From Escherichia coli (GTDB lineage: Bacteria > Pseudomonadota > Gammaproteobacteria > Enterobacterales > Enterobacteriaceae): a stretch of DNA of 10,032 bases. Location of the stretch: NCBI RefSeq assembly GCF_036507355.1, contig NZ_AP027880.1; one strand, written 5' to 3'. Below the pieces are notes generated by a model, which was not told the origin of the DNA, did not search any database, and saw nothing but the letters and a program-made list of their open reading frames with translations. A program made the position numbers and the translations under genes. Shown piece after piece: positions 9,010 through 10,032 of this stretch; positions within the stretch are counted from its first letter, which is position 1; the number at the start of each line of letters is the position of its first letter.

Positions 9010-10032
9010 ATGAAGTTTCGAGTCTTTTGCTTGGCAGCACTCCCCTGCTTTTCGGTTTCAGCGCAGTCTTTAGAAAATTTAGGGTCCTTGACGGCCGACC
9101 AACAGGGAGCCAGCTCTGCCACTGCCGTGAGCGCGGACGGCAGCACGGTCGTGGGGGAGGCTGCTTACGATCTCACGGCAGGCGGGACGGGCAGGCATGC
9201 ATTTCGCTGGACCAGTGCGGGCGGCATGCAGGACTTGGGCGACTTGACGGCCAACCAACAGGGATACAGCTCTGCCACTGCCGTGAGCGCGGACGGCAGC
9301 ACGGTCGTGGGGGGGGCTGCTTACGATCGCACGGCAGGCGGGACGGGCAGGCATGCATTTCGCTGGACCAGTGCGGGCGGCATGCAGGACTTGGGCGACT
9401 TGACGGCCAACCAACAGGGATACAGCTCTGCCACTGCCGTGAGCGCGGACGGCAGCACGGTCGTGGGGGGGGCTGATTACGATCGCACGGCAGGCGGGAC
9501 GGGCAGGCATGCATTTCGCTGGACCAGTGCGGGCGGCATGCAGGACTTGGGCGACTTGACGGCCGACCAACAGGGAGCCAGCTCTGCCTATGCCGTGAGC
9601 GCGGACGGCAGCACGGTCGTGGGGGGGGCTAATTACGATCGCACGGCAGGCGGGACGGACTATCATGCATTTCGCTGGACCAGTGCGGGCGGCATGCAGG
9701 ACTTGGGCGACTTGACGGCCAACCAACAGGGATACAGCCATGCCACTGCCGTGAGCGCGGACGGCAGCACGGTCGTGGGGTGGGCTAATTACGATCTCAC
9801 GGCAGGCGGGACGGGCAGGCATGCATTTCGCTGGACCAGTGCGGGCGGCATGCAGGACTTGGGCGACTTGACGGCCGACCAACAGGGAGCCAGCTCTGCC
9901 TATGCCGTGAGCGCGGACGGCAGCACGGTCGTGGGGTGGGCTAATTACGATCGCACGGCAGGCGGGACGGACTATCATGCATTTCGCTGGACCAGTGCGG
10001 GCGGCATGCAGGACTTGGGCGACTTGACGGCC
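9010..10032 (+). CDS. Type Va autotransporter, N-terminal portion: signal peptide plus HAF-type repeat units 1-6. The frame runs open off the window end and continues at nt 1.
   Basis: ATG at 9010 gives MKFRVFCLAALPCFSVSAQS (basic N-terminus, hydrophobic core, AQS cleavage-type motif), then LENLGSLTA and six 52-aa repeats. There is no stop before 10032, which is presumably why it is absent from the ORF track. 9010 and 1 are in the same frame because the window length is divisible by 3. Confidence 0.8.
   Translation, partial: MKFRVFCLAALPCFSVSAQSLENLGSLTADQQGASSATAVSADGSTVVGEAAYDLTAGGTGRHAFRWTSAGGMQDLGDLTANQQGYSSATAVSADGSTVVGGAAYDRTAGGTGRHAFRWTSAGGMQDLGDLTANQQGYSSATAVSADGSTVVGGADYDRTAGGTGRHAFRWTSAGGMQDLGDLTADQQGASSAYAVSADGSTVVGGANYDRTAGGTDYHAFRWTSAGGMQDLGDLTANQQGYSHATAVSADGSTVVGWANYDLTAGGTGRHAFRWTSAGGMQDLGDLTADQQGASSAYAVSADGSTVVGWANYDRTAGGTDYHAFRWTSAGGMQDLGDLTA
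9097..10032 (+). repeat. Tandem array of 156-bp (52-codon) coding repeats, units 1-6. Unit starts: 9097, 9253, 9409, 9565, 9721, 9877.
   Basis: The period is exactly 156 bp, measured from recurrences of GACTTGACGGCC at 9241, 9397, 9553, 9709, 9865 and 10021. Units are near-identical. The HAF(R)W motif matches the HAF family of probable extracellular repeats. Confidence 0.95.

Follow-up and report, generated by a model that had tools for sequence, protein, structure and literature searches.

The gene considered here lies on a 10,032-nucleotide stretch of Escherichia coli DNA (contig NZ_AP027880.1; "the window" means this whole stretch), and it quite probably encodes a type Va autotransporter of the HAF-repeat, or Xat, family, whose passenger is an eight-bladed beta-propeller and would act as a surface adhesin by homology with XatA of Xylella fastidiosa. 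It is a known kind of protein and not a new one, and this member is plasmid-borne and unusually regular. The new detail is the variation among its repeats, of which units 2-7 show no synonymous divergence (dS=0) and differ in ways confined to the positions that are hypervariable in the family.

The product is encoded by a single open reading frame (ORF) of 755 codons plus stop, which opens with an ATG at 9010, fills the end of the window (9010..10032, plus strand, residues 1-341) and continues through the junction, after residue 341, with its frame unbroken into 1..1245 (plus strand, residues 342-755 and the stop codon at 1243-1245). The window behaves as the record of a circular 10,032-bp plasmid, and the autotransporter gene spans its origin. 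By inspection, residues 1-18 (MKFRVFCLAALPCFSVSA; 9010..9063, plus strand) look like a Sec signal peptide, having K2 and R4 in the n-region, a hydrophobic core, V at -3 and A at -1; cleavage is likely between VSA and QS, after which LENLGS follows. A lipoprotein signal was rejected, as neither Cys of the signal peptide lies within a lipobox. The HAF units, with a period of 156 nucleotides or 52 residues, occupy 9073..10032 (plus strand; units 1-6 and the first 24 nucleotides of unit 7) and 1..132 (plus strand; the rest of unit 7, up to residue 385), as seen from repeat finding, the HAF_rpt model and four strands per unit in the predicted structure; Tandem Repeats Finder gives the array a period of 156 nucleotides, 94% matches and a score of 1661, reaching the end of the window. 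A degenerate eighth unit (residues 386-428; 133..261, plus strand; SADGSVVAG...RAFIY) is recognized in the translation, by HAF_rpt and in the alignment of homologs. Then come a short spacer (residues 429-442, KAPQSPTDPNLPIQD; 262..303, plus strand) modelled with low confidence, a 31-residue alpha-helix that would be the pore-spanning linker (residues 443-473; 304..396, plus strand), a C-x8-C pair (C476 and C485; 403..432, plus strand) that is nearly invariant in 53 homologs and stands between the helix and the first barrel strand, and the beta-barrel translocator (residues 484-755; 427..1242, plus strand) delimited by PF03797 and Foldseek, whose C-terminus, ...YSARF, shows by inspection the aromatic signature of outer-membrane proteins. 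A first-pass annotation, made from the letters alone, had placed the gene at these same coordinates and had described a signal peptide followed by LENLGS, a linker (PTDPNLPIQDYENVLKSF...AAAQQQLG) and a barrel of about 270 residues ending in F; all of these are present, the C-terminal domain measuring roughly 272 residues. It had also assigned SADGS, HAFRW and GGMQDLG to every one of eight units of about 52 residues. SADGS does occur eight times at a 52-residue period (residues 41..405), but HAFRW and GGMQDLG occur seven times each, the eighth unit keeping SADGS while it has RAFIY in place of HAFRW and is without GGMQDLG.

Searches with the HAF repeat and autotransporter beta-domain models, which the same annotation had put forward as a check, both give matches: TIGR02913 (HAF_rpt) scores 166 bits against a cutoff of 22.65 in 8 stretches (E=1.1e-49), and PF03797 covers residues 499-729 with 55 bits against a cutoff of 26 (E=1.3e-14). 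PD40 (PF07676) gives a weak signal, its summed 29 bits passing the cutoff of 20.9, yet no individual stretch passes alone. No WD40 model matches the window protein, nor do any of the pertactin, PATR and autochaperone models in the Pfam scan. The assignment of the gene product to the classical type Va (AT-1) autotransporters, with a HAF-repeat passenger, is supported.

What fold does such a passenger take? AlphaFold2 was run with a 53-sequence alignment, secondary structure was assigned by DSSP, and folds were matched against the PDB by Foldseek. The full-length model has a mean predicted local distance difference test score (pLDDT) of 91.4, falling below 50 for residues 1-19 and to about 53 for block 431-440 in the spacer, and it contains eight groups of four strands, the helix 443-473 and a barrel; the passenger modelled by itself reaches a pLDDT of 93.6 and a predicted template modelling score (pTM) of 0.91. 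All fold matches of the passenger are propellers, PLL propeller lectins and integrin propellers among them, and no beta-helix appears. An eight-bladed beta-propeller is thus predicted for the passenger with high confidence, and a beta-helix is not; the first-pass annotation had suggested a propeller or a solenoid of seven or eight units. By sequence, the passenger has no match in the PDB (best E=0.08), and no solved close structure was found. The translocator matches EstA (3kvn), AaaA (9oqa), NalP (1uyn, TMt 0.83), EspP and BrkA; as modelled, it is a standard type Va unit, a NalP-like barrel with an alpha-helix in its pore, a helix that NalP and EstA also have. Blade 8 contributes just three strands itself, and at residues 21-23 the model has a short strand within the N-terminal LENLG (residues 21-25; 9070..9084, plus strand), which corresponds to the outer strand MQDLG. 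For these reasons the model suggests that LENLG serves as the fourth, or "velcro", strand of blade 8 and closes the ring.

The repeats themselves are strikingly alike. Among the seven 52-residue units (residues 22-385), any two differ at 1-19 of 156 nucleotides, and at 1-13 among units 2-7. The latter contain 15 variable nucleotide sites, all of which are nonsynonymous and fall in nine codons (unit positions 9, 13, 15, 17, 29, 31, 34, 40 and 41); dS is 0 in all 15 pairs and nonsynonymous divergence (dN) reaches 0.117, several variable codons differing at two or three bases (AGG/TAT, GCC/TAC). When changes were placed at random in 100,000 runs, the probability of no synonymous change was 0.013 and that of nine codons or fewer was 7e-5, and both together occurred 0 times. 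The same nine positions are the most variable of the whole family (3.30 versus 1.49 bits; Mann-Whitney p=2e-5; 282 units from 53 proteins), and both in the window protein and family-wide they are rich in Tyr, Trp, Arg, Asp, Asn and Ser. In the model, they map to the D-A and B-C loops and to neighbouring strand ends, namely the beginning of A, the end of B and the beginning of C; from the usual topology of propellers, they would sit together on one face. The eighth unit is the most conserved one across the family, S405, D407, G408 and G413 being invariant and A424, F425 and I426 nearly so. In other lineages, units have diverged in the ordinary manner with dS>dN, unlike the array of the window protein. 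Our reading is that this array is homogenized by recombination while selection diversifies the binding face, although recombination and selection as proposed here offer no mechanism for multi-base codon differences that come without any synonymous change. A diversity-generating retroelement was considered as the source of the variable codons and rejected, because there is no reverse transcriptase gene on the plasmid and the changes show no specificity for adenine. One may go further, speculatively and with the chances rather against it, and regard the array as a quickly re-assortable recognition surface, in which unequal recombination would keep synonymous sites identical and shift the number of units between plasmid copies, and selection would maintain or renew nine ligand-facing codons per blade. 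A loose analogy is offered by the hypervariable residues of TALE repeats. If this were true, a portable and quickly retunable adhesion specificity would be moving from Burkholderiales to Enterobacteriaceae on a small relaxase-encoding plasmid.

The functional side of the argument comes from XatA (PD0528, UniProt Q87E01) of X. fastidiosa Temecula1, which has a paralog, XatB. The XatA passenger was predicted to be a propeller in 2012, and the protein was found in the outer membrane, in vesicles and in the supernatant; it is needed for autoaggregation, biofilm formation and Pierce's disease symptoms, and it alone makes E. coli UT5600 aggregate and form biofilm, its passenger being accessible to proteinase K (PMC3426408). 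The HAF family, which the first-pass annotation called one of unknown function, is therefore not entirely so, since XatA drives autoaggregation and biofilm; and export through the barrel, which it posed as a puzzle, hardly is one, because XatA, a HAF passenger, is surface-exposed in E. coli and would be exported unfolded like any type Va passenger (PMC3426408).

How close is the window protein to XatA? A protein cluster, P0141, contains ADN63803.1, which is XatC of strain GB514 in the supplement of the XatA paper; XatC passes HAF_rpt and matches the profile of the window passenger with an hhalign probability of 99.9% (E=5e-31). When XatC was used to query a 50% representative library, it led to P0286, a protein of 730 residues that carries QHCQIDA at 461-467 and NSASISE at 29-35. 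In the published primers used to clone XatA, the peptides encoded for residues 29 and 470 are NSPSISE and QHCQIDA, and NSPSISE itself stands at residue 29 of a fragment, P0299. Because the primer-encoded peptides recur in it, P0286 is taken by its sequence to be a XatA ortholog. It passes both HAF_rpt and PF03797, and in BLASTP it aligns with the window protein over 654 columns that include repeats, linker and barrel (29% identity, E=4e-39). The C-x8-C after the helix is common to the two proteins: the pair at residues 476-485 (window 403-432), directly after the pore helix, aligns with HCQIDAAGQSC of the XatA ortholog and may form a periplasm-side disulfide loop within the translocator unit. 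Like the window protein, XatA is an AT-1 protein of about 730 residues with a signal peptide, tandem LGxL/HAF repeats of about 50 residues, a C-x8-C linker and a PF03797 barrel ending in F; unlike it, XatA is chromosomal and has diverged repeats, described as six, whereas the window gene is plasmid-borne with seven near-identical units plus one. By its length, XatA belongs with family members in which eight units are almost the rule, and the published count of six repeats may be an underestimate. Xat proteins form a Xylella-specific clade, while the nearest relatives of the window protein are in Burkholderiales, and the window protein falls outside that clade (58-84% identity to Castellaniella, Bordetella and Comamonas proteins versus 29% to XatA). 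Judged by sequence, it is a family-level homolog of XatA and not an ortholog. Xylella also has XatC (PD0794) and a HAF protein on plasmid pXF64-HB, which share the HAF-repeat propeller domain with the window protein, one of them being plasmid-borne like it; they differ in lacking a barrel and in being only about 415-425 residues long. A search with this Xylella plasmid protein listed XatC and relatives from Neisseria, not XatA. In Chlamydia pneumoniae, a gene was already annotated as "HAF family autotransporter" in 2010 (PMC2873915). The C. pneumoniae protein CPK_ORF00201 / Cpn0796 has the same annotated combination of HAF and autotransporter beta-domain, a likeness by annotation only; it is listed among XatA homologs with weakly supported orthology to XatA, and human isolates carry it as two separate genes.

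Most type Va passengers are beta-helices (PMC9289746). Autotransporter classifications of 2012 and 2022 do not mention HAF or propellers, and the 2022 review recognizes passengers made of a beta-helix, of a beta-helix plus an enzyme and of an enzyme only, filing XatA with mostly beta-helical adhesins. EstA (PDB 3kvn) and AaaA (PDB 9oqa) of Pseudomonas aeruginosa, which resemble the translocator most closely in structure, show that passengers other than beta-helices can take the type Va route, although theirs are globular enzymes (a GDSL esterase and an aminopeptidase) and not repeat propellers.

HAF proteins number in the thousands in the protein database, and the best matches are proteins of about 700-750 residues with the same layout of HAF repeats and barrel, from Castellaniella ginsengisoli (84% identity), Bordetella avium (67%), Comamonas (about 58%) and Pseudomonas protegens (48%), and further from sphingomonads and Rhodobacteraceae. 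The chromosomal HAF autotransporters of these four named taxa belong to the same family and share the eight-unit layout, and none of them is characterized; their repeats have ordinary synonymous divergence, in contrast to dS=0 here. Exactly eight units are found in 50 of 53 full-length homologs. In a scan of species-representative genomes, the matches listed place HAF domains in many phyla, and among them the alignment extends through the barrel in Proteobacteria only; HAF propellers are also joined to many other anchors, such as PEP-CTERM, dockerin and Ig-like domains, across phyla. Plasmid location is not unique either: tblastn found 41 plasmid records with HAF proteins, many of them annotated autotransporters, on plasmids of Pseudomonas, Burkholderia, Stenotrophomonas, Brucella and Salmonella. 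With these plasmids and the name in use by 2010 (PMC2873915), the novelty that the first-pass annotation implied does not hold. Small size among the full-length plasmid matches is confined to the E. coli plasmids of about 10 kb. A barrel-less ORF of 324 residues with about 49% similarity to the HAF repeats lies at 1784-2758 of Klebsiella pneumoniae pVA126-12 (NZ_CP093494), adjoining qnrB19 on this small MOBQ plasmid, and the same ORF is present on a 6.7-kb Klebsiella plasmid.

The Castellaniella allele has an identical signal peptide, and 321 of its 330 C-terminal residues are identical (dN 0.024, dS 0.047), while the repeat consensus compares at dN 0.103 and dS 0.042; the gene, found on a short and possibly collapsed contig, is one unit shorter. 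By blastn, the DNA shared with the C. ginsengisoli contig extends from about 25 bp upstream of the ATG (8985..10032, plus strand) to about 173 bp past the stop (1..1418, plus strand), and the flanks beyond differ. Since only about 8985 to about 1418 is shared, the gene appears as a cassette in two different contexts, and we propose that it is a discrete cassette of Burkholderiales type. The GC content of E. coli is about 51% and the plasmid averages roughly 62%. Within the plasmid, the barrel part and the gene flanks (window 1-1500 and 8500-9000) have 52-59% GC, the backbone (1500-8500) 57-71%, mostly 62-71%, and the repeats 64-66%, a contrast that fits an acquired autotransporter cassette.

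Plasmid p2017.17.01CC_2 (NZ_AP027824) of E. coli matches 95% of the window's length at 99.6% identity, and E. coli contigs of 10,032 bp are on record with the same protein cluster. The other ORFs encode a RelB-like/ParE toxin-antitoxin pair, RepA_C, a ribbon-helix-helix protein, ParA, a serine recombinase, an EexN-family lipoprotein, Rep3 and MobA/MobL. The autotransporter, which had been singled out as the only obvious cargo, is indeed the sole gene outside replication, partition, toxin-antitoxin, recombination, entry-exclusion and mobilization functions according to the family-model scans. The first-pass annotation saw in it the likely selected trait, which is at most a conjecture; on a sister plasmid, the gene carries a 5-nucleotide deletion that breaks its frame. 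No Rfam model matches the window. Two unrelated replication initiators, RepA_C (2447-3442, minus strand) and Rep3 (6117-6986, plus strand), share this 10-kb plasmid, and four iterons, GGGGGGGTCCGATTTAACG, at 2176-2286 adjoin the RepA_C gene. A 54-nucleotide inverted repeat, 98% complementary, at 4473-4526 and 5576-5629 flanks the genes for the serine recombinase (4558-5310, minus strand) and the EexN-family lipoprotein (5202-5456, minus strand); it could mark an invertible segment, a duplicated res site or a cointegrate scar between the RepA_C/ParA and Rep3/MobA halves. The near-identical plasmid is typed as "non-mobilizable" by PLSDB/MOB-suite, yet there is a MobA/MobL relaxase of 506 residues at 7079-8599 (minus strand; PF03389, E=6e-30). 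Around mobA and "TraD" (window about 7530-8708), segments about 93% identical are found on many enterobacterial plasmids.

In type Va export, the protein passes the inner membrane through Sec, its barrel is inserted by the beta-barrel assembly machinery (BAM) with a helix in the pore, and the passenger crosses unfolded with its C-terminal end first. Along this route, the Sec signal peptide would bring the window protein to the periplasm, the C-terminal 270 residues or so would be inserted in the outer membrane as a NalP/EstA-like barrel holding the 31-residue helix, and the passenger of about 410 residues would cross unfolded, C-terminal end leading, and fold outside blade by blade, each 52-residue unit making one four-stranded blade. 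A propeller should present no special export problem, because it consists of local beta-meanders that can fold vectorially. As to the order of blade folding, we infer from a hairpin model that the conserved eighth unit emerges first and that the N-terminal LENLG arrives last, completing blade 8 and closing the ring. The displayed propeller would then act, by homology with XatA, as a surface adhesin for cell-cell aggregation and biofilm, which is by analogy its most likely function. The nine positions per blade would set specificity and evolve fast while scaffold and translocator are held constant. A ligand other than that of XatA is quite possible, since the variable surface is not conserved.

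Several points weigh against this account. Blade count, ring closure and the variable face are derived from strand counts, pTM and fold matches, not from coordinates. Identity to XatA is just 29% and the variable face differs, so that the ligand may differ. Adhesion, aggregation and expression in E. coli are presumed, and a simple scan of the gene's strand found neither a convincing sigma-70 promoter upstream nor a convincing terminator downstream. In NZ_AP027824 the gene has one more repeat unit and a 5-nucleotide deletion (GTGGG within GTGGGGTGG) that breaks the frame, and it is annotated with 423 residues; AP027811 is full of indels. These lesions may be sequencing errors or real decay, and in NZ_AP027824 either repeat number and frame are unstable or the sequence is in error. 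Finally, tandem repeats are liable to assembly or polishing artefacts, which keep some small chance of lying behind the dS=0 pattern; such a source is countered by NZ_AP027824, an independent plasmid record with the same unit sequences, in which the sole amino-acid difference in shared units is at hypervariable position 29.

It might also be that the propeller is a lectin-like or host- or matrix-binding module, or a released binding protein, rather than a self-association factor, with the nine positions per blade setting its ligand. The many anchors of HAF propellers across phyla are as for a general binding module, the residues favoured at the variable positions and the lectins and integrins among the fold matches point the same way, and the XatA passenger is also found in culture supernatant (PMC3426408). 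However, the only experimental data in the family point to aggregation and biofilm (PMC3426408), and no sugar-binding or other ligand motif was identified in the window protein, so we see this as possible but on the unlikely side. It is improbable that the gene is a hitch-hiking cassette, unexpressed or non-functional in E. coli and decaying, on a plasmid that persists by its toxin-antitoxin, partition and mobilization genes. The frame-breaking deletion of NZ_AP027824 and the many indels of AP027811, the missing consensus promoter in the simple scan, a GC content foreign to E. coli and a closest allele in Castellaniella would all suit such a fate; but here the ORF is intact over 2,268 nucleotides despite a recombination-prone array and, as is typical of the family, comprises eight units; the breaks in AP027811 affect almost every gene, a sign of sequencing error; and XatA, whose native host is no less foreign, is exported and works in E. 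coli (PMC3426408). A conventional right-handed beta-helix with the repeats as rungs is hardly credible, for although beta-helices prevail among type Va passengers (PMC9289746) and in the group where the 2022 review puts XatA, each unit is modelled as a four-stranded antiparallel meander within a compact domain, all fold matches are propellers, and the pertactin, PATR and autochaperone models find nothing.

The propeller autotransporter described here does not overturn current understanding. It presents the beta-propeller passenger, a structural class that has no entry in the main autotransporter classifications, in a clean and unusually regular form. With near-perfect repeats and nine variable positions, it is a convenient model for asking how a ring-shaped fold closes when secretion runs from the C- to the N-terminus, whether E. 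coli can gain an aggregation or biofilm trait from a small plasmid, and which residues determine what HAF domains bind, these domains being very common and hardly studied.
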